Shown here piece after piece: positions 31,931-46,140 of a stretch of 64,000 nt of DNA. Position numbers and translations under genes: made by a program. Position 1 is the first letter of the stretch, and every line of letters begins with the position of its first letter. Source of the stretch: a virus; the IMG/VR virus record IMGVR_UViG_3300016478_000246, positions 34,353 to 98,352 of that record; one strand, written 5' to 3'. The notes beneath the pieces were generated by a model. It made no database searches, was not told where the DNA came from, and worked only from the letters and a program-made list of their open reading frames with translations.

Positions 31931-33022
31931 TTAAACAATACTTTTGTTTTGAGTTAAATAGCGATAAGAAATAAATCCTCTGAAATTATCACACCATCCA
32001 GGAGTGTTATTGTTAATATCATGCTCCAAAGAATCACCATCTCCATATCCATCTTTGACGAGCACTCTACCTTTGGCAAACTCATAATACTCATCGTCAT
32101 TCATAGCTCTTGCACAATGTTCAAAAGGGCTGTAGTGTTTAGACTCTAATAGCTGGTCATGTAATTTAACATCTTTTTCGTAGTTAATCTCCCCATCAAA
32201 AGTCATATATGATAAACGGGCGCACCGGGCAGTTGCTACTTTAATTCCATATTCAGACATATCTTTACCCCATAATTCTGTTATGTTTGGTAAAAAATTC
32301 CATTTATGTAATGCGTAGTCTATCTTATCATTAAAAGGAATATGCCATTGACCACTTTCTAACTGCTTAGGAGTAGATTCATTCATAGCATCCCACATAG
32401 CTTCAGCTAATGCTTGAATATGAATTTCTGCCTGAGATTTATTGATTAATAACCAATCCAAATCAGATAAAGAATTTAAATAATTTCTATCTTTTTCAAA
32501 CCCTTTACCTAAACCGTGTGTATATGAATTAATACAATCTTTTTTACTTTTAAATATCTCTGTTTTATATTCATATTGTGGGCAACGCAATTCAAAAAAG
32601 TTTCTAAAATTAGTTCCAGTAAGCAATACTGTATGCCACATGAAAGGTTCAAGAAGTCTGTTGCAAATTTGTTTGGTGACTCCAGCATAGTGTAACATCC
32701 TTGCCTGGTAAATTGCCTTATTACGAGCCTGTAGCCATTCTAAATCCATTTTATCAGACTCTTCTTTACTCCAGTATTCAGTCCCCTGCATTCCTTTATG
32801 GTCTTTTTGCCAAGCAATAGGGATAAATGGGTCTTCTTCAACCATCTTAACCATCTTCTCAAACGGTATAGCCCTGCTTGATGCAGAGTTACGGCTAAAC
32901 ATTCTATGGGTCATCAACTCCCCGTGAATAAATCTTGGGTAAGTTAATAAAAAAGTAGTGATTCTATCGCCTTGCGGGTTAATAGAATCAGCTACTATTT
33001 GTGCGGATATTTGTTTTTTCAT
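31931..33022 (-). CDS. thyX: FAD-dependent thymidylate synthase
   Basis: 'ELMTHRMFSRNSASSRAIP', 'KQICNRLLEPF', 'ARCARLSY', 'HYSPFEH'. Confidence 0.85.
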   Translation of the reverse strand: MKKQISAQIVADSINPQGDRITTFLLTYPRFIHGELMTHRMFSRNSASSRAIPFEKMVKMVEEDPFIPIAWQKDHKGMQGTEYWSKEESDKMDLEWLQARNKAIYQARMLHYAGVTKQICNRLLEPFMWHTVLLTGTNFRNFFELRCPQYEYKTEIFKSKKDCINSYTHGLGKGFEKDRNYLNSLSDLDWLLINKSQAEIHIQALAEAMWDAMNESTPKQLESGQWHIPFNDKIDYALHKWNFLPNITELWGKDMSEYGIKVATARCARLSYMTFDGEINYEKDVKLHDQLLESKHYSPFEHCARAMNDDEYYEFAKGRVLVKDGYGDGDSLEHDINNNTPGWCDNFRGFISYRYLTQNKSIV

Positions 33023-36158: not shown

Positions 36159-36659
36159 TTATTTAACCCAAACAACCATCTTATCAAAATCAACAGTCCA
36201 TTTATGTTCTTGAAAGAATTTAGAGCCAAGCAATCCAGCTATTTCATAGCCTTTATTAATTTCCGGGTCATCAAACAAATCCAAGTCTGCTACTGAAAAC
36301 TCGTTATACCCAAAAGATTTTTTGTTATGAAAGACTTCTTCGTGGAATCCCTGACTTTGAGCCATTTCTCCAGAGGCTGTCATTACTGATGAGTTATCAT
36401 CTTCAACAATCGCTGCTCCAACTTTATCCAAATACTTGGTCCTAACAATATTAATTGTCGACCCCGTATCAAGAAGAAAATAAGCTGAAAGACCACCAAT
36501 TTTTAGTTTTACCAATGGTGCCCTAAACGCCTTTAACTCTTTAAGAAAATTAATTTCATATTTATATTGCTCCTTTAATTTTCGGTTCATGTCCAACACC
36601 ATAAAACCTAATAATAGTACAATTATCAACAACACTATTACAACACCTACTTGTCCCAT
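36159..36659 (-). CDS. Membrane-anchored retropepsin-like aspartic protease
   Basis: N-terminal TM helix, 'FLLDTGS' catalytic motif, 'GLLGSKFF', 'VDF'. Confidence 0.85.
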   Translation of the reverse strand: MGQVGVVIVLLIIVLLLGFMVLDMNRKLKEQYKYEINFLKELKAFRAPLVKLKIGGLSAYFLLDTGSTINIVRTKYLDKVGAAIVEDDNSSVMTASGEMAQSQGFHEEVFHNKKSFGYNEFSVADLDLFDDPEINKGYEIAGLLGSKFFQEHKWTVDFDKMVVWVK

Positions 36660-37921: not shown

Positions 37922-38386
37922 TTAGTTTTTTAAGTTTTTAATAAATTCAATACAGTCATTAACTTGTTTTTGATTATGTGGTTCCCAAAATATAGGCGTG
38001 ATTTCATCATTTGGCCTATATGTAGCTTCAAGCCACTTTAAAAACAGTTTACGCTTTGTAGGGTAATCATCATTAGCATAGCCCTTACACTCTATAAATA
38101 TATGATAATTGCCTTTTTTGACAACAAAATCAACTTTATAGGTTTTAGCATCAATTTTAAATCTTTGCTTCATAAGGCCCTTTTGCTTACCACTCTCAAC
38201 AGGGTAGTACACTTCTGTACTGTTCAGTTCAAACGAAGGGATAAGGTCAACCCTCATCCCCTCGTATTCAAAATCAAAATTATTGCTTATGAGTTTTTTG
38301 TAAGTGTATAGCTCAAGCTTACTTCTAAACTTAATATCATCATATACAACTTCCTCAGCACCTATCACTCGTTTGTTTTTACTCAT
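37922..38386 (-). CDS. Endonuclease / Holliday junction resolvase-like (DUF1064/T7 endonuclease I-like)
   Basis: 'DDIKFRSKLE', 'TYKVDF', 'IECKG'. Confidence 0.8.
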   Translation of the reverse strand: MSKNKRVIGAEEVVYDDIKFRSKLELYTYKKLISNNFDFEYEGMRVDLIPSFELNSTEVYYPVESGKQKGLMKQRFKIDAKTYKVDFVVKKGNYHIFIECKGYANDDYPTKRKLFLKWLEATYRPNDEITPIFWEPHNQKQVNDCIEFIKNLKN

Positions 38387-38396
38387 AATTCATTAG

Positions 38397-39821
38397 TTAC
38401 ATTCTTATTGGCGTCTCATATTTTTGATCGTCATCAAGGAATATGTCAAGAGCACCATTTATGTCTAAATGCACTATTGCTGAGTGATTAAACTCATAAC
38501 GACGCGCATCAATATACTCCATCAATATCTTTTCAATATCAGTTCCTTCATATGCATGCTTGATAACGCGCGAAAGGGTTACACCATTAATATCCGCATT
38601 ATCATCTTCTGCAAAATCAAGAATTGCCATAATTATTAATAGCCAATTGATAATCTTTCCGGTATTAAATGTTGGGCCATGAAGCCTGAATTCAACAGTT
38701 TTGCCTTTATTATCAAATAGCAGATTAATTAAATTGAACCAAAAATAACGAAGATTATTTTCCCACTTATGGTCAAAATTTGGATTGCGGGGATGCTTTT
38801 CAAAGAAATTACCCTTTTTGTAAGACATATTTGTTGCTGACAGATATGAGTATAACTCATCAAAATCAGTCACTATTGATGGAAGTCTATTGCAATAATC
38901 TTTGCCAGACTCTTTATAGGCAGAGGTTCTAAATACATTTCTATGGAACATTAAAGCCAAATCATCCTGAATGCGATAAGCCAGGTTCCATAGTTTAGTA
39001 ATTTTTGCTTCATCAAGCGGAAAGTTACCAAGATGGATGTGAAGTGAACACTCTTTATCAAATGTACAATATTTGTTCAGGAGTTTAGTCTGATAGAATA
39101 TGTTATTGATGCCTTCAAGACCTGCCATTGGTATAGAGGTGTATTCAATGCCAGAGATAGAGCCATCTCTAAGTGGGATTAACCCAGCCTTATAGCACTC
39201 GTTTTCAGGAATAATGCCACTGGATGTCTCGTACTCAATGCCAAACGAATATTTATTAACCATTTCAATAAGTCGTTTGCTCTGAACTTTTGGATTAAAA
39301 AAGTCTGGCAAAACAACTTCCTTACGGGCATCCACAAACGTCTGAATTAAATCCGCAGAGTTATATAGCCTTGGGATTGTTCTGTATGGAAAATGATCGC
39401 TTTTAGGCCGTTTACGATGAAAATAATTCATCCTTATGGCTTGAGTATAGTCCACATGCTCTCCAGAGTCAAGATAAACTTTTGGTATTGATTCAAAAAC
39501 CTCATCATTCATGACAATATTCTTGCCATGCCTACTGTTGATATATAGTGCAACAAGTCTATTTGCTTCAAAATGACCAAAATCATACTCTCCGGTGTTT
39601 TTATTATAACTGATTATTCCATAATGGATATTTTCGTTAACCAAACGATATTCATTATGTTTTTTGTCGAAATAGATTTTAGGGTGATTCTTTCGATACC
39701 ACTTTCCTTCAATAGATACGCAATCAACCCCCTTTTTATAGAAATTGTCGCCAATTTTAATACACTCTTTTCTCAGGACTTTTTCTCCTGATACGTTAAC
39801 TACAAGTTCATTCGCTTTCAT
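38397..39821 (-). CDS. Putative amidoligase (glutamine synthetase-like fold, Amidoligase_2)
   Basis: 'FGIEYE', 'RDGSISGIEYTS', 'CSLHIHLG', 'RYFWFN', 'TVEFR'. Confidence 0.82.
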   Translation of the reverse strand: MKANELVVNVSGEKVLRKECIKIGDNFYKKGVDCVSIEGKWYRKNHPKIYFDKKHNEYRLVNENIHYGIISYNKNTGEYDFGHFEANRLVALYINSRHGKNIVMNDEVFESIPKVYLDSGEHVDYTQAIRMNYFHRKRPKSDHFPYRTIPRLYNSADLIQTFVDARKEVVLPDFFNPKVQSKRLIEMVNKYSFGIEYETSSGIIPENECYKAGLIPLRDGSISGIEYTSIPMAGLEGINNIFYQTKLLNKYCTFDKECSLHIHLGNFPLDEAKITKLWNLAYRIQDDLALMFHRNVFRTSAYKESGKDYCNRLPSIVTDFDELYSYLSATNMSYKKGNFFEKHPRNPNFDHKWENNLRYFWFNLINLLFDNKGKTVEFRLHGPTFNTGKIINWLLIIMAILDFAEDDNADINGVTLSRVIKHAYEGTDIEKILMEYIDARRYEFNHSAIVHLDINGALDIFLDDDQKYETPIRM

Positions 39822-41389
39822 TGTTGTGTTATTGTAAAGTTTTTAATTTCACCATTATTACTATAAGCATCTTCTTCAATTTTAATGATTAAGTCAATAA
39901 TCATTTCTTCAAGCTGATCTTCAGGGATGCTTCCTGCAAGGATCTTACTATCAAATTCAACGTATTTGGCCGGTCTTTTATAAGTTGGAGAATATTTGTA
40001 TTGTGTATGACTGGTTATTATTCCAGCATTACAATCATATTCAACAGCCTCAGTCATAAATGATGGAGTAAAACTATCATCAGTTGGTTCAAGCTTGCCA
40101 GATTGATAATCAATACCATAAAACACAGTATCTTTTGTTACCGGGTCTTCGTATGGCACGGGATCAACTGAAAATGGGGCTAAATAAATATCAAGCATTT
40201 CATCTCCATTTGACGACTGCCTGTAATCTTGAAGATAAAACTCTGCCGCAAGGAAATGAAAATATGATTTCATTAGTATCCCATTAATAAACCAATACGG
40301 TTCAGACATTGCATAATGTACAGTATTAGTATTTATATAGCCAGTTTTGGTTGCATCATACCTGCCATTACACCTTTTATTATTCACATAATAGAAGCCG
40401 TCAGTTCTATAATGGATTTCATTAACTATGCCATAAGCATATTTTGTTAAGATTCCACTACTGGCAACACCCGTGTTTTTATTTGTTGTGGTTCCAGTAC
40501 CCAGGAATTTGTTCTTATTCCATTCAGTTGAATAAGTAGACCTACGAGTGTCTTCAATTCCATCCCAATAGCCACCATAGCCACCATAGCCATCATAATA
40601 AGTCCTTGCATTAGTATATACTTCAAATTCAGCTTGATAATTATTTGATCGGTCATATTCTATTGAATCAATTACATTGCCATCTTTTAAGACAAACAGC
40701 GTGTTTTGTTTTAAAGAATAAACTTCAACATTGTATTTGTTAATGCACTGCAATGACTCTTCAATTGATGAAAACCAAAAGCCGCCTTTATCATTCATAA
40801 AAAACAATGGTCTCTCAACTACCAGGGTTTTATCATGCCCATTTTTATAGTTGCGAGAAGCTCCTTTGAAAACTTTAATCAATGAATCACCGTTATTATG
40901 CTCATAAAACACAAAAGCACCAGCGCCATTGTACTCACTAAGCACATGATAGCCAACTTTATATACAATTTTAGCAAAAATCTGTGAGTCTGTTTCCGAT
41001 GCCAGAAATGGAACTTCGTATTTATTTGCCAACTCTTTGTAGTTTAAAAGAGTGCCATTGTGGATCATCGCAAATACAATTTCTCCGTTATCATCAGTTA
41101 TAGTTACAGGCTGTGCCTGCTGGAGCCCAATGGCCCCAACAGACGCTTTACGACAGTGTCCAAGTGCAAAGTCATCCCATGTAAAGTCAATAGCTTTCGC
41201 TTCTTTTGACTCAAGGAACTTCTTATATAGTTTAGTCTTGTCGTGCCCATAATGAACTGCGGTTGGACTTTTTTTCTTCTTAATCAAGACTCCGCAAGAA
41301 TCACCTCCACGAGTATCATTATAAAGACCAAGGATGTGAAATCTATATGTGTCTCTTGTTTTACCTACGTTTCCAAATATTCCGCACAT
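39818..41389 (-). CDS. Class II (Ntn) glutamine amidotransferase
   Basis: N-terminal 'MCGIFG', 'RGGDSCG', 'GHCRKAS', 'HNGTL', 'TDSQ', 'ERPLF'. Confidence 0.9.
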   Translation of the reverse strand: MCGIFGNVGKTRDTYRFHILGLYNDTRGGDSCGVLIKKKKSPTAVHYGHDKTKLYKKFLESKEAKAIDFTWDDFALGHCRKASVGAIGLQQAQPVTITDDNGEIVFAMIHNGTLLNYKELANKYEVPFLASETDSQIFAKIVYKVGYHVLSEYNGAGAFVFYEHNNGDSLIKVFKGASRNYKNGHDKTLVVERPLFFMNDKGGFWFSSIEESLQCINKYNVEVYSLKQNTLFVLKDGNVIDSIEYDRSNNYQAEFEVYTNARTYYDGYGGYGGYWDGIEDTRRSTYSTEWNKNKFLGTGTTTNKNTGVASSGILTKYAYGIVNEIHYRTDGFYYVNNKRCNGRYDATKTGYINTNTVHYAMSEPYWFINGILMKSYFHFLAAEFYLQDYRQSSNGDEMLDIYLAPFSVDPVPYEDPVTKDTVFYGIDYQSGKLEPTDDSFTPSFMTEAVEYDCNAGIITSHTQYKYSPTYKRPAKYVEFDSKILAGSIPEDQLEEMIIDLIIKIEEDAYSNNGEIKNFTITQQ

Positions 41390-41426
41390 TATGTTTGTTT
41401 GTTTTTAAATTAATAATTTTAAAAAA

Positions 41427-42518
41427 TTAAATTACTTCGTTAATTGCTTCACCAGCGTCTATATTCCTGGCTTCCCGATCACGCTCTCTTATAGCGGCAT
41501 CAAGTATTTGATTAAAGACTGCTCCACCTTGTAGTTTTACACCGTCAACCTGTGCAAAATCTATTGGTCTTGGTGCTACCCACCGAACATTAGCATCTTC
41601 CCAGGCGGCCTGCTTTTTAACAGGGTCCCTTAAAGGATCAATTGGTGCGTGTTTATCAAAGATAGCCTTCTTCTTTTGATTGTAATAAAAATACTGCTCA
41701 CGGATTTCATCCGGCACCAGGATATTATACTTTTCAATTAACTCTCTGGCAATGTCAGTATCGCCATTGTTGATACACGAAATAATCATGTTTTTATCTT
41801 CCTGGATTCTTTCAATGCCATTAAGATTTAGATAACCAATGGCTTTCATAATCTGATTGGTAGCAAATTCAAGCAAAAGACGGTTTGATAGCAGCATGCC
41901 GGAAAGAACGCGATACTCTACCCCAAAAGATGTAAATCTGAAACATCCAGCCTTGCCATACAATTCGCGACGACGAGTATCATTGTCGATTAATACAAAT
42001 GGCACGCCAAGGAACAAGTCCATAGCCTTAATCAAATTCATAGCGTCATCATCTGACACTTCATCAAACCCAACATGGAAATGGCATCCAGCGGAACGCA
42101 ATTGCAAATTCTCAGCAGTTGGTGGAATGTTAATCATCCCATCAAACCATGCATTAAAGTCTGGCGAACACCCAAATTGTTTAGCCTCATCACTCTCTAA
42201 CTCATGTTGTGGATAGATCATTGACGCGCCGAACGATGGCTCAAGCCCTTTAGGCTCCAGGAAGGTGTACAAATACTCAATCATGTTTGAAATATGTGTA
42301 ACCACTTCATATGGTGTATGACAGACTGGGATGTTGAACTCCCCTAATACATTATCTATTTGAAGTCCAAAACCCTCTCCAAGCTCTGGTATTGGCGTTG
42401 CTTTACCCTTAACTCCATCAATAATTCCAATTGATGATACTGGTTCGCCATCTTCTATATCTATAATGAAGAATTCAGGGTCACTTCCTAATGTAATGTT
42501 TTTAAAGATTGGTTTCAT
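41427..42518 (-). CDS. COOH-NH2 ligase type 2 (phiEco32-like)
   Basis: 'LGSDPEFF', 'DNVLGEFNIP', 'FGCSPDFNAW', 'RSAGCHFHVG', 'RRELYGKAGCFR', 'GVEYR'. Confidence 0.88.
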   Translation of the reverse strand: MKPIFKNITLGSDPEFFIIDIEDGEPVSSIGIIDGVKGKATPIPELGEGFGLQIDNVLGEFNIPVCHTPYEVVTHISNMIEYLYTFLEPKGLEPSFGASMIYPQHELESDEAKQFGCSPDFNAWFDGMINIPPTAENLQLRSAGCHFHVGFDEVSDDDAMNLIKAMDLFLGVPFVLIDNDTRRRELYGKAGCFRFTSFGVEYRVLSGMLLSNRLLLEFATNQIMKAIGYLNLNGIERIQEDKNMIISCINNGDTDIARELIEKYNILVPDEIREQYFYYNQKKKAIFDKHAPIDPLRDPVKKQAAWEDANVRWVAPRPIDFAQVDGVKLQGGAVFNQILDAAIRERDREARNIDAGEAINEVI

Positions 42519-43180
42519 TTTTTAATAATTTTAGAAATTAATTTGTTGATGTAATTTAATGTTTTTCCCTCCATATCACTTTCGGGATTCATATATTCAG
42601 GATGGCCCTGGACACATAAAGAATTTGTCTTTGGATAATAGACAATTTCGGGCTCTTTGAAAGACTCTGAGAATTCTACATACCCATCCACAGCATAATA
42701 TGAAGCGGAGCGCTTAGGCGCAGCCCAGGCGATAAGCTCATACTCATTATCTTGTAGAATATAAGGATTCATCATTTGATGGTGAGTTGAAGTAATAAAC
42801 AATTTCTCACCATCAGCAGTTTCTATCGGGTGCAAGCCCCCCATAGCATGACTCTGAACATCCTGAAATAAAACACCGCCATTCATTACCGTAAGGAATT
42901 GACTTCCACGGCAAATACCAACGAGTAGCTTACCAGATTCTTTGTAAGAGTCAAACACGGACTTTTCATGCACATCTCTTGAAAGATTAGACCCTGTCGT
43001 TGGAGACCGCTTTACTTCAATTGGATATAATGATGGGTCAACATCTTCTCCACCAGTAAAAATAATAATATCAGCCTCTTCGGCGTTATTCACAAGAGTG
43101 TAATTTGTTAAGAAATTAGCATAGTGTGAATCGTTGCTATATGCTGACTGATTAATCACATAGACCTTTAAATCTTGCAT
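42515..43180 (-). CDS. Class I glutamine amidotransferase / peptidase C26 (gamma-glutamyl hydrolase-like)
   Basis: 'FTGGEDVDP', 'GICRGSQ', 'STHHQ', 'VQGHPE' give the Cys-His-Glu triad. Probable start ATG 43180. Confidence 0.88.
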   Translation of the reverse strand: MQDLKVYVINQSAYSNDSHYANFLTNYTLVNNAEEADIIIFTGGEDVDPSLYPIEVKRSPTTGSNLSRDVHEKSVFDSYKESGKLLVGICRGSQFLTVMNGGVLFQDVQSHAMGGLHPIETADGEKLFITSTHHQMMNPYILQDNEYELIAWAAPKRSASYYAVDGYVEFSESFKEPEIVYYPKTNSLCVQGHPEYMNPESDMEGKTLNYINKLISKIIKK

Positions 43181-43964
43181 GTTGAAATAATGTTTCTTTA
43201 AGTTTTTTGTTAATTTTGTTTTTTTCAAGATCCTGCATAACATCATCTTCTGATTCAGGAGATATCTGTTTTGGTAGTGCTCCATTTCTCTGACAGCTAA
43301 TGAATTGATTGACATTCATGAAATCTGAAATAGCGTGGTCAAACCTACTCTGCAAAGAATCATTGTCAAATATATCTGTTGACCCTTCATTGTATCTATC
43401 ATAATGAATAGAATGACCTGGATTATCGTTTTCAAAACAATTTAATGCCAATGTAAATCTTTGTGCTAAATCAAGGTCCATAAAATCAATTTCTTTGCCC
43501 ATTAAAAACGCCAACTTAATAACGTAATTATAATTATTTTCAAACAAAACTCTTACCATCGCGGGGATAAGCCTTATTTGATAGAAGTTAACATCTTTAT
43601 TGGTGGTACAAGTAATCAAAATATAATCCTCATCATAATCCTCGCAAAGAAAAGTCCAATAGCCCATTGATATGTGAGTTAATAGCCCTAAATACTCTTT
43701 AACTTGCTCTTTGGTTATAAGACAATAATTATTAAGTCTTTTGGTGTTTTCTTTGTCAGTTATGCAAATTTTAATTTTAATGTGTCCATTAAAATCATAT
43801 CCATTTGGAGCATTATTATATAACTCTGAAAAACACACATAAGCAGAATTTAAATATTCTTCACCCCTAACGAGCTTTTTATCAATAGCGTTTCCTTTTT
43901 TACGCGTTAATTCATACGAATAATAAACCTGATAAACCAGCCCCTTAACCTTCATAATTATCAA
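43152..43964 (-). CDS. Hypothetical protein within the amidoligase cluster
   Basis: 270-aa ORF overlapping both enzyme neighbours. No family recognised. Confidence 0.65.
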   Translation of the reverse strand: MIIMKVKGLVYQVYYSYELTRKKGNAIDKKLVRGEEYLNSAYVCFSELYNNAPNGYDFNGHIKIKICITDKENTKRLNNYCLITKEQVKEYLGLLTHISMGYWTFLCEDYDEDYILITCTTNKDVNFYQIRLIPAMVRVLFENNYNYVIKLAFLMGKEIDFMDLDLAQRFTLALNCFENDNPGHSIHYDRYNEGSTDIFDNDSLQSRFDHAISDFMNVNQFISCQRNGALPKQISPESEDDVMQDLEKNKINKKLKETLFQHARFKGLCD

Positions 43965-44751
43965 TCATTTTTTTAAGTTGAACTTTATATTTTTCTAACC
44001 CCACTTCCCCTAAGCTTGACGCTGAATTAGTTTCTAAAATTACAAACTTAGGAATAAAGTCATTTTTACGGCCTTTTGATGTCTGGACCTTAACGTCACA
44101 TGAACAAATATCAAGACCTATGGCTTGCATAGCCTTAACGCATTCAGCAACAATATCATCCCAATTTGTTGGTCTGTCAAACAAAGGGTTTTCCTCAAGA
44201 ATCCACACTGAATTAACATCGTGACGGTGCCAGCGATCTTCGGCATCATTCTTTAGCATTTTACGACAGGCATAAAAGCAACCATCTTTTGTTACATGCA
44301 AACGATATTCTTTTGAGTACGACAAATACTTTTCAATAATATACTTGCTTAAAGAGTCTTTATGCTCATCAACAAATGCATTTAATTGTTCCTGGTTTTC
44401 AATAAAATAAATACCCTCACCTTTTGATGAATGAATGTGCTTAATAATCATTGGAAATTGCTTTTCTTCCTCAACATCTTCAAAGTTAATAAAATCTTCA
44501 AGGTGACTCCAGGGAGCGGTTTTGATTTCATGCTGGTCAAACAGCTCTTTCATAAGGATTTTATCCCCACTATTACGGCATGCTTCAACTGTATTAATTT
44601 CAATGATTTTACGACCCTTAGCAACTCCCTTAGGGAAGATGGCTTCAGTTGGTGTTGTGCTACCTAAGCGAAATACTGCTCTTACCGGCATTTCAATAGC
44701 GTCTTTAAGACCGTCAGCACTGTAGTTTTTAGTTCTAATCTTTAATTTCAT
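43945..44751 (-). CDS. ATP-grasp ligase (RimK/YheCD-like)
   Basis: 'DKILMKELF', 'FPMIIK..HSSKGEGIY', 'IIEKY', 'EYRLHV', 'GLDICSCDV', 'ILETNSASSL'. Confidence 0.85.
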   Translation of the reverse strand: MKLKIRTKNYSADGLKDAIEMPVRAVFRLGSTTPTEAIFPKGVAKGRKIIEINTVEACRNSGDKILMKELFDQHEIKTAPWSHLEDFINFEDVEEEKQFPMIIKHIHSSKGEGIYFIENQEQLNAFVDEHKDSLSKYIIEKYLSYSKEYRLHVTKDGCFYACRKMLKNDAEDRWHRHDVNSVWILEENPLFDRPTNWDDIVAECVKAMQAIGLDICSCDVKVQTSKGRKNDFIPKFVILETNSASSLGEVGLEKYKVQLKKMIDNYEG

Positions 44752-44763
44752 AATACTTAATTG

Positions 44764-45138
44764 TTAATAATTATTTTTGTTTTTAATCCAGCATCCAGAC
44801 TCAACTATTGGCTTATTTGCACAAAAGCTATTCCTTTGTGGGGCAAGGTAGTATAGCGTAGTTTCAATGCTTTCTGATAATTTGATTGTTTCTTTAAGAT
44901 ATAATGATGGATAACCTTCATACATATCAATTTCTTGTAAAGTTGTTTCGTCGCTGATTTCATAAGTCTCAAGATAAATAGGGTGCAACTCTTTACTCTT
45001 AATTAAAGCCGGGTAAGGGCCCAGGTCAATCATTTTAAAACCAATGTCATGGAATCCCACATGCACTAACTTTGCCTTGCCCAGCTTATAATGAGCCAGA
45101 AAACCCTTTTTTAACGTGCCATAAACCGATAATAACAT
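44764..45138 (-). CDS. Gamma-glutamylcyclotransferase (AIG2/GGCT-like)
   Basis: 'VYGTLKKG', 'GPYPAL', 'ETYEI', 'IDMYEGYPSLY'. Confidence 0.9.
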   Translation of the reverse strand: MLLSVYGTLKKGFLAHYKLGKAKLVHVGFHDIGFKMIDLGPYPALIKSKELHPIYLETYEISDETTLQEIDMYEGYPSLYLKETIKLSESIETTLYYLAPQRNSFCANKPIVESGCWIKNKNNY

Positions 45139-45141
45139 GAA

Positions 45142-46140
45142 TTAAATTAATAAATTGTTTAAAACTTTTAAAAAAACATCTTTCCCATGATTTTTATACA
45201 AATCGCTCGGGTCTTTCGATTCATATTCTGATGGAATTTCAATTTGTTTGAATCCATACATGCTTGCTAATTTCTCACCATTAATACGTCCCCAATTATT
45301 TTCACCATTAAAATCATTGTCATAAAGAACATATTTGTTTGTAAACCTTGAGTTTAACAAATCAACCACATGGCTCTTAAACACAACTGACTCCGCCTGC
45401 CCAGAAGTTGATGGGATATTAAGATTTTCCCATAAACACAAAGCATCTTTTCTTGAAGATGTTATTATAACCTTATCACCACTCTCTGGCAATTTAGACC
45501 ATAAATCCCATACGGACTTATTATGATTATTTATCCATTTGTAATCCTTACTGTATGGTTGATAGATTTTATATGTGGGAGTGTTGTCTTTAAACTCAAC
45601 ATACACATACGCATATTTCTCGGCCGGCACAGTGAAAGAAACGCCTTGTTTTTCAATGAAAACGTGAGTTATAGGGTATATGTCACCAAACTCTAAAAAT
45701 GGCTTAGAAATGCCGTATTTAGCCCAAAAATCAAGGTCATAATTACGCCACTCCCTGGTCTTAACTTGTATTTTAGTTGGGACAGATTTAAACTCACGCT
45801 TAACGCCTTTATAATCTATTTTAATAAGCTCACCAGGTGGTATTTTTAATATTACCTCTTCATAAACTTTGTTTAAAACGTCTTGAAATGATAATTTATA
45901 CATCTTCATAAGCAAATCAAATACTCCTCCAGCATCACGCGTCGAGTAATCATAATAAACAAGTTTGCCGCTTTCATTGTAATACAACCCAAAGGAAGGA
46001 CGGGTATCGTCCTCCCTTAGTGGGCTGCATATAACTGTTGGCAGATTTGTTATGCCAAGGTAAAATTCAAGAATTTTGGCTTCGTCGATATAGCAAAGTA
46101 TGTCATCAGGAGTTGTCGTCCTATTACCCTTTACTATCAT
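45142..46140 (-). CDS. DNA primase (crAss DnaG-type)
   Basis: 'SPLREDDTRPSF', 'KIYQPY', 'ITSSRKDALCL', TOPRIM 'YDND', 'KDPSD'. Confidence 0.85.
   Translation of the reverse strand: MIVKGNRTTTPDDILCYIDEAKILEFYLGITNLPTVICSPLREDDTRPSFGLYYNESGKLVYYDYSTRDAGGVFDLLMKMYKLSFQDVLNKVYEEVILKIPPGELIKIDYKGVKREFKSVPTKIQVKTREWRNYDLDFWAKYGISKPFLEFGDIYPITHVFIEKQGVSFTVPAEKYAYVYVEFKDNTPTYKIYQPYSKDYKWINNHNKSVWDLWSKLPESGDKVIITSSRKDALCLWENLNIPSTSGQAESVVFKSHVVDLLNSRFTNKYVLYDNDFNGENNWGRINGEKLASMYGFKQIEIPSEYESKDPSDLYKNHGKDVFLKVLNNLLI

Follow-up and report, generated by a model that had tools for sequence, protein, structure and literature searches.

A probable crAss-like variant of the phiEco32/LUZ24-type phage amidoligase cassette, with a seventh component tied to its C26 glutaminase and an exchangeable slot beside the primase gene

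The amidoligase cassette of the phiEco32/LUZ24-type phages, whose product has been in question since 2009, ranks among the commonest groups of enzymes in virulent phages that still lack an explanation. In phages such as Pseudomonas phage TL and Escherichia phage IME267 it lies in the early/replication region (adjoining primase/helicase genes in TL) and comprises a COOH-NH2 ligase (PF14395), an Amidoligase_2 protein encoded beside a class II glutamine amidotransferase (GATase), a RimK-like ATP-grasp ligase and the gamma-glutamyl cyclotransferase GGCT. Later papers credit Iyer et al. 2009 (Mol Biosyst 5:1636) with the idea that the cassette modifies peptidoglycan peptides, and papers from 2023-2025 still treat a peptidoglycan role as a prediction. 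Here we analyse a seven-gene block at positions 38397-45138 (minus strand) of a 64-kb stretch of viral DNA, hereafter the window, which is the 3′ part of the 98,352-bp IMG/VR record IMGVR_UViG_3300016478_000246 (estimated to be 97% complete). The same record encodes an open reading frame (ORF) of 5,069 amino acids (aa) typical of crAss-like virion RNA polymerases, and the phage was detected in freshwater and wastewater metagenomes of several studies. With a probability that we place at roughly 70%, the block is a crAss-like variant of the phiEco32/LUZ24-type cassette with a proposed chemistry of making and trimming amides. Hallmark genes of the phiEco32 type are found in it, namely a PF14395 ligase, a PF12224 gene that overlaps a class II GATase gene, and a RimK-like ATP-grasp ligase together with GGCT. 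Also, a search with the COOH-NH2 ligase finds matches in 312 phage records, for the most part from LUZ24-like phages of Pseudomonas and phiEco32-like phages of Escherichia. The original prediction, made from the sequence of the window alone, had pointed to phiEco32-like clusters with a proposed cell-wall role and had named no identified product; the literature and the gene sets of TL, IME267, cr108_1 and phi14:2 agree with the first statement, and the second stands since no product is reported in the literature searched.

The window differs from the phiEco32/LUZ24 type in gene order and in having a conserved protein of 267 aa, here called UNK, whose counterpart there is not detectable by sequence and has only a weak fold-level hint. 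Since the LUZ24/phiEco32 cassettes are without a recognisable class I GATase of the peptidase C26 family, it is the pair of C26 enzyme and UNK that makes the variant; the small protein following the COOH-NH2 ligase in TL (gp16) and in IME267 (gp081) was considered as a class I GATase and rejected, having no recognisable GATase. Two crAss-like phages are closer. Cellulophaga phage phi14:2 (g037-g041; Steigviridae, Akihdevirus; NC_021806) has its cassette in the same slot directly after the primase gene, in a replication-module context and in the same order of GGCT, ATP-grasp ligase, COOH-NH2 ligase, class II GATase and amidoligase (29% identity to the window amidoligase over 85% of the length), but unlike the window it lacks the C26 GATase and UNK, and a gene like that of uracil-DNA glycosylase (UDG) lies downstream, of which the window has none. 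The uncultured gut phage cr108_1 (gp_22626-gp_22632; Steigviridae, Pipoluvirus; MT774385) agrees with the window in slot and gene order and also has the C26 GATase and proteins of the UNK family, with 49% identity between the COOH-NH2 ligases; in contrast to the window it has no GGCT, two UNK paralogues, a UDG gene downstream and a ligase without a tail of ~95 aa. As the records of phi14:2 and cr108_1 already annotate the cassette, the cluster is real but not new, and what is new is the UNK component, its link to the C26 enzyme and the site at which the cassette is swapped. The copy in the window therefore leaves the overall picture of the cassette unchanged and adds three practical handles (UNK, natural minus variants and the swap site). 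More distant comparisons are with PafA/Dop, which share the GS/GCS2-like ligase superfamily, ATP-dependent acyl-phosphate chemistry and a deamidase/hydrolase partner, and with MurT/GatD, in which a class I glutaminase is paired with an ATP-dependent ligase to turn a stem-peptide carboxylate into an amide. However, neither the COOH-NH2 ligase nor the amidoligase has a sequence or profile match to solved chains of PafA/Dop, and membership is not claimed (in the VIA alignment of UNK, Dop comes up with a Z of just 3.2); the ligase paired with C26 here is GCS2-like and not a Mur ligase.

On the minus strand, seven co-directional back-to-back ORFs fill the block, with junctions that range from a 29-nucleotide (nt) overlap to a 37-nt gap; two 4-nt ATGA overlaps are found at 42515-42518 (class I GATase/COOH-NH2 ligase) and 39818-39821 (class II GATase/amidoligase). 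Upstream the block is bounded by a DnaG-type DNA primase gene (45142-46140, minus strand; phrog_12622, E 4e-47) and downstream by a gene for a DUF1064/Holliday-junction-resolvase-like protein (37922-38386, minus strand; PF06356, E 2e-8; phrog_190, E 1e-11). Thus the ORF calls, Pfam and PHROGs bear out the prediction of seven tightly packed genes between primase and resolvase, while the free-standing operon that it also proposed did not hold up. The block is embedded in a long co-directional replication array, and a scan of it for promoters and terminators (consensus, sigma-70-type only) gave nothing above shuffled expectation, so that the word operon is only loosely right. When the block was compared by megablast with 50,697 phage records, no match was found.

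All six enzyme families that had been named were recovered by profile searches of Pfam and PHROGs, and their family motifs, said to be intact, indeed keep the diagnostic residues across 12-42 relatives. In transcription order, the first gene (44764-45138) encodes a GGCT/GGACT-like gamma-glutamyl cyclotransferase of 124 aa (PF06094, E 9e-17, 62.2 bits against a cut-off of 22.8; phrog_2520), whose conservation across 12 relatives is at least 95% both at the Y6-G7-T8-L9 motif and at E74, the putative catalytic residue. It is followed by a RimK/Ddl-like ATP-grasp ligase of 268 aa (43945-44751; PF02222, E 1e-9; PF08443 (RimK), E 3e-5; phrog_2599, E 4e-27) that conserves K104, E140, D219, E240 and N242 in 42 relatives, the ATP-binding Lys and the Mg-binding E-x-N being present. 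Its NCBIfam matches all lie far below the curated cut-offs, and no characterised enzyme is therefore its equivalog; the NCBIfam equivalog cut-off is reached by none of the cassette enzymes. UNK is encoded next (43152-43955, alternative start 43964), and after it GAT1, a class I GATase of the peptidase C26 family (42515-43180; PF07722, E 2e-15, 57.7 bits against a cut-off of 20.5; phrog_7218, E 2e-39). The most likely start of GAT1 is M46 (43180), giving 221 aa, as against the first ATG at 43315, and all homologues align from M46; in the numbering of the 266-aa ORF its triad of C135 (GICRG), H238 (H238-P239-E240) and E240 shows at least 95% conservation across 40 relatives. The COOH-NH2 ligase type 2, phiEco32-like and of the GCS2/YbdK superfamily, has 363 aa (41427-42518; PF14395, E 3e-9, 36.8 bits against a cut-off of 25, and above the cut-off in the own-genome search as well; phrog_3815, E 4e-58), with D13-P14-E15, E60/N62, H146/H148, R183/R184 and E201/R203 invariant in 16 relatives. 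Its C-terminal extension of ~95 aa (41427-41714, residues ~268-363) is common only to the nearest relative (L003/L050), and the ligases of all other lineages, at ~265 aa, are without it.

The class II (Ntn) GATase, GAT2 (39818-41389, 523 aa; PF13522, E 3e-13, 50.5 bits against a cut-off of 27), starts with MCGIFG and conserves R27/G28, H110-N111-G112 and T133-D134-S135. Only its residues 1-140 align to PurF/GlmS structures; for residues ~215-523 no Pfam family, PDB profile or Atlas model was found (structural template-modelling (TM) score <0.3), and this C-terminal half is poorly conserved, with only four Gly invariant. The cassette had been said to hold two glutamine-utilising enzymes, of which the class I and class II GATase families stand, while the use of glutamine is only one reading, as both could be gamma-glutamyl/amide hydrolases; no synthase domain can be recognised on GAT2. 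The last gene encodes a GS-like Amidoligase_2 of 474 aa (38397-39821; PF12224, E 9e-6, 26.2 bits against a cut-off of 22; phrog_2443, E 4e-17), in which E196/E198, H261/H263 and E377/R379 are invariant in 17 relatives and an N-terminal region of ~190 aa has no family assignment. No solved relative of the COOH-NH2 ligase or the amidoligase was found by single-sequence or profile search of the PDB, and the HIV reverse transcriptase and tail-protein matches listed for these ligases in structure searches were dismissed as chance. The dN/dS values of the cassette genes against the nearest relative (L050) are 0.06-0.26 (GGCT 0.08; UNK, the fastest-evolving, 0.26), with 0.06 for the primase. Judged by their sequences, the cassette enzymes have intact catalytic residues and are under purifying selection.

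UNK is a conserved seventh component of the cassette and is genetically tied to the C26 glutaminase. The protein has no family match in Pfam, PHROGs or NCBIfam. An exhaustive HMMER search of 1.84 billion protein representatives gave a family of ~30 representatives of 245-320 aa, and a k-mer protein search gave 4 close relatives. Three residues (R135, E139 and H181) are invariant, and C41, F42, K147 and A149 are at least 90% conserved. UNK and GAT1 co-occur in every covered cassette that has either, UNK being present in 1-2 paralogous copies, and both are absent from the cassettes of phi14:2 and L104. Also, in two loci an N-terminal C26 domain is fused to a C-terminal UNK domain (L027:6800-8335, 511 aa; L030:6840-8348, 502 aa). 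It may be noted that UNK and C26 are each encoded a second time, by free genes, beside these fusions. The order of glutaminase and then UNK resembles that of glutaminase-synthase fusions, which suggests that UNK may be an acceptor-binding or adaptor partner of the C26 enzyme.

The AlphaFold2 model of UNK made on the family alignment has a pLDDT of 92.8 and a pTM of 0.92 (pLDDT 54 on a shallow alignment). Against the PDB, the best Foldseek match of the model had an E of 0.019 (none at E ≤0.001) and the best match of the wide VIA search a Z of only 4.0, so that no fold can be called. In BFVD the model matches two hypothetical proteins of cr108_1 (TM 0.73-0.74), and it matches only weakly uncharacterised proteins of LUZ24-like, phiEco32-like and Aeromonas phages. 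Comparisons of UNK by BLAST, HMM and hhalign with the LUZ24/phiEco32 hypothetical proteins encoded upstream of the COOH-NH2 ligase were all negative, and hhalign found no relation to the cassette's own ligases and GATases; a seeming 100% hit to GAT1 was an artefact of a contaminated GAT1 profile, which was traced to the GAT1-UNK fusions. An assignment to DUF2927/peptidase M10 from ESM Atlas features (0.85) was rejected, as the HExxH motif is missing and the score is below the trust level. UNK is a concrete target for structure and interaction work.

Co-occurrence of the genes in relatives, which had been set beforehand as a test of the cluster, was examined in a survey anchored on the COOH-NH2 ligase (41 IMG/VR loci) and in one anchored on the primase (the best 80 of at least 570 relatives), and the cassette proved to be inherited as a block. 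The block is present at one site in 30 crAss-like loci (23 fully and 7 partly covered) and absent as a block in 41. The order is fixed as DnaB, a ~300-aa protein, primase, [GGCT], ATP-grasp ligase, UNK (1-2 copies), C26, COOH-NH2 ligase, class II GATase, amidoligase, [UDG], resolvase and exonuclease, where square brackets mark genes that may be missing. Among the 23 fully covered cassettes, all seven families are found in 9, GGCT alone is missing in 12, one is without C26 and UNK, and one is without C26, UNK and GGCT. GAT2 adjoins the amidoligase in every lineage read, GAT1 adjoins the COOH-NH2 ligase wherever GAT1 occurs, and the ATP-grasp ligase adjoins GGCT where GGCT exists. These enzyme pairs are not obligatory, since GGCT is often missing and phi14:2 has neither GAT1 nor UNK. 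Natural minus variants of this kind (L104, like phi14:2, is without GAT1 and UNK, and many copies are without GGCT) define the optional steps, and phi14:2 on Cellulophaga baltica offers a cultured system for testing the function of the cassette.

Some relatives carry the cassette genes in other forms or settings. The COOH-NH2 ligase gene is split in L035-L042, L055 and L083 (ORFs of 150 and 124 aa or of 190 and 148 aa) and the C26 gene in L023, L052 and L077 (ORFs of ~89 aa and ~110-199 aa), which probably reflects insertions of introns or homing endonucleases. The set of UNK, C26, COOH-NH2 ligase, GAT2 and amidoligase is found also on viral contigs of 117-218 kb (L018, L019, L022, L039, L032, L034 and L040-L042); as these are without the crAss-like primase/resolvase context, the variant with C26 and UNK is not confined to Crassvirales. 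In the cyanophage Lbo-JY46 of Leptolyngbya (L049; PP438436: 19732-28545) the cassette comes directly after a phosphoribosyl pyrophosphate (PRPP) synthetase gene and holds, in addition, further genes like those of class I GATases and one for an ATP-grasp protein of 536 aa.

Among the 80 primase-anchored relatives, the slot between the primase gene and the UDG/resolvase genes holds one of three mutually exclusive cassettes, namely the amidoligase cassette, a GHKL ATPase or a cassette with E1(ThiF)+JAB. Where the amidoligase cassette is absent (41 loci of this survey), the slot is still filled (3.9-7.0 kb). A five-gene E1(ThiF)+JAB-like cassette is found in ~39 loci, partly covered contigs counted, with a ThiF/E1-like protein matching PF00899 (E 2e-14 to 3e-20) and a match to Prok-JAB that is sub-threshold yet consistent (6 of 6 divergent members, E 6e-5 to 6e-4); a GHKL ATPase of ~775 aa occupies the slot in 7 loci. 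No locus of the primase-anchored survey (L050-L128; see for example L072:11011-16763, L063:10992-16900 and L057:10956-15074) has two of the three together. The exclusion extends beyond the slot, as ThiF (PF00899) was found neither in the 98-kb genome of the window nor in five complete amidoligase-type genomes, and PF14395 was not found in five complete E1-type genomes, with positive controls recovered in both searches. On a primase phylogeny, made as a quick tree, the cassettes are intermingled. To explain the amidoligase label takes 6 changes, of which well-supported branches force at least 2, and to explain the E1+JAB label takes 10, with at least 4 so forced. Therefore cassette replacement has happened more than once. 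Just downstream of the slot most relatives (L055-L128) carry a UDG gene, which was found nowhere in the 98-kb record of the window. The UDG of most amidoligase-type relatives keeps the GQDPY and HP motifs and that of phi14:2 is degenerate (GKEPY), so that a dead UDG is not the rule in this sample.

Gene pairing and family chemistry probably point to the following mechanism. The cassette would be expressed together with the replication genes, and its members may form three units (GAT2 with Amidoligase_2; C26, with UNK, and the COOH-NH2 ligase; the ATP-grasp ligase and GGCT), the first two being putatively translationally coupled pairs. The ligase of each pair would activate the carboxylate of an acceptor as an acyl-phosphate at the expense of ATP, and the paired glutaminase would either supply glutamine-derived ammonia, so that a carboxamide results, or break a gamma-glutamyl/amide bond by hydrolysis. 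For the RimK/Ddl-like ATP-grasp ligase the predicted role is to add an amino acid, probably Glu, and for GGCT it is to remove, as 5-oxoproline, a gamma-glutamyl unit with a free alpha-amine.

As for the acceptor, we tentatively rank a protein or peptide of the infected cell, tagged in a manner like pupylation or glutamylation and itself less likely than not, slightly above a peptidoglycan precursor and a metabolite, because the slot alternates with the E1+JAB cassette and because the superfamilies of the enzymes offer precedents. The Pup ligase PafA is a member of the GS/GCS2 ligase superfamily, RimK attaches glutamate to the C-terminus of a protein, and the bond of epsilon-(gamma-glutamyl)-lysine is cut by GGACT. 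That sister phages hold E1(ThiF)+JAB in the same slot, and never both cassettes, argues weakly for a protein or peptide acceptor. In an experimentally evolved LUZ24-like phage, the genes for the amidoligase and the class II GATase gained missense changes in each of two lineages, and these parallel changes are likewise weak evidence for it. If tagging is indeed the function, the history of crAss-like phages would include repeated exchanges between two kinds of amide-bond tagging machine, and in any case the swap site yields a testable protein-tagging idea that competes with the peptidoglycan hypothesis. The fuller version, in which the tagging system is functionally interchangeable with the ubiquitin-like E1+JAB cassette and the C26 enzyme has UNK as its acceptor or adaptor subunit, we consider decidedly unlikely. 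Several points weigh against the proposed chemistry and against tagging in particular. An unrelated GHKL ATPase cassette also uses the slot, which makes the sharing of the slot weak evidence of a shared function. No tag-like small protein is evident in the cassette, although no search was aimed at a tag gene. GGCT is missing in most of the crAss-like copies, and GAT1 with UNK in phi14:2. Neither a synthase domain nor a sign of an ammonia channel is recognisable in the C-terminal half of GAT2. Also, we infer every step of the mechanism, since in the literature searched we found neither an identified product nor a biochemical or genetic test of any cassette member.

Modification of a peptidoglycan precursor, in which the D-iso-Glu alpha-carboxyl or the epsilon-carboxyl of meso-diaminopimelate (mDAP) of the cytoplasmic stem peptide would be amidated or extended for superinfection exclusion or in preparation of lysis, is somewhat unlikely though not far behind in plausibility. 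The idea recurs in the literature, in which no experiment on it was found by our search. Biochemical precedents exist, as both carboxylates are known targets of amidation, by MurT/GatD and by the class II GATase AsnB1/LtsA, and branch amino acids are attached by ATP-grasp ligases. According to the phage records the hosts belong to Pseudomonas, Escherichia, Vibrio, Aeromonas, Cellulophaga and Leptolyngbya, which are mDAP-type Gram-negatives, and D-Ala-D-Ala ligase is among the top NCBIfam matches of the ATP-grasp ligase (E 9e-11, well short of the cut-off). However, no cassette member matches the Mur-ligase family in Pfam, GGCT has no obvious substrate in the stem peptide because the amine of D-Glu is acylated there, and the swap partner in crAss-like phages is the E1+JAB cassette and not a set of wall-related genes.

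We regard as unlikely the synthesis of a free gamma-glutamyl or amidated metabolite (a modified polyamine, a cofactor tail, a signal or an anti-defence molecule), in which the gamma-glutamyl group may serve as a transient protecting group removed by GGCT and C26. The layout is like that of a multi-enzyme biosynthetic gene cluster, and similar combinations occur in PuuA/PuuD (GS-like ligase and C26 hydrolase), in BtrJ/BtrG of butirosin (ATP-grasp ligase and GGCT-type deprotection) and in EgtA/EgtC (GCS2 ligase and class II GATase-like hydrolase). The best NCBIfam match of the C26 enzyme is gamma-glutamyl-CDP-amidate hydrolase (E 1e-4, below the cut-off), and the adjoining PRPP synthetase gene of Lbo-JY46 is also consistent with a small molecule. 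But Pfam and PHROGs find no transporter, carrier or tailoring enzyme (pyridoxal phosphate-dependent, redox or methyl-transfer) in the cassette, and UNK has no match to the fold of a small-molecule enzyme.

Least supported and highly improbable is a hypermodification of phage DNA or nucleotides in which the ligases would decorate a base: the position between primase and resolvase, the lack of UDG in the genome of the window, and the report by Lee et al. 2021 of amidoligase and amidotransferase genes beside the thymidine-hypermodification genes for 5-HMUDK/aGPT-Pplase in some viral contigs of viromes are in its favour, but a ThyA-type hydroxymethylase (PF00303) is absent from the genome (controls positive), a TET/JBP (PF12851) match is absent as well, if weakly so since the control genomes also gave none, only a ThyX-like gene is present, and no kinase or glycosylase-fold transferase is found in or beside the cassette. 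The ThyX-like gene is a 363-aa ORF at 31931-33022 (minus strand) with sub-threshold matches to ThyX (PF02511) in two stretches, and it probably encodes a divergent flavin-dependent thymidylate synthase. Elsewhere in the replication module, a 166-aa ORF at 36159-36659 (minus strand) resembles retropepsin-like aspartyl proteases (PF13650, E 6e-7; PF13975, E 9e-6).

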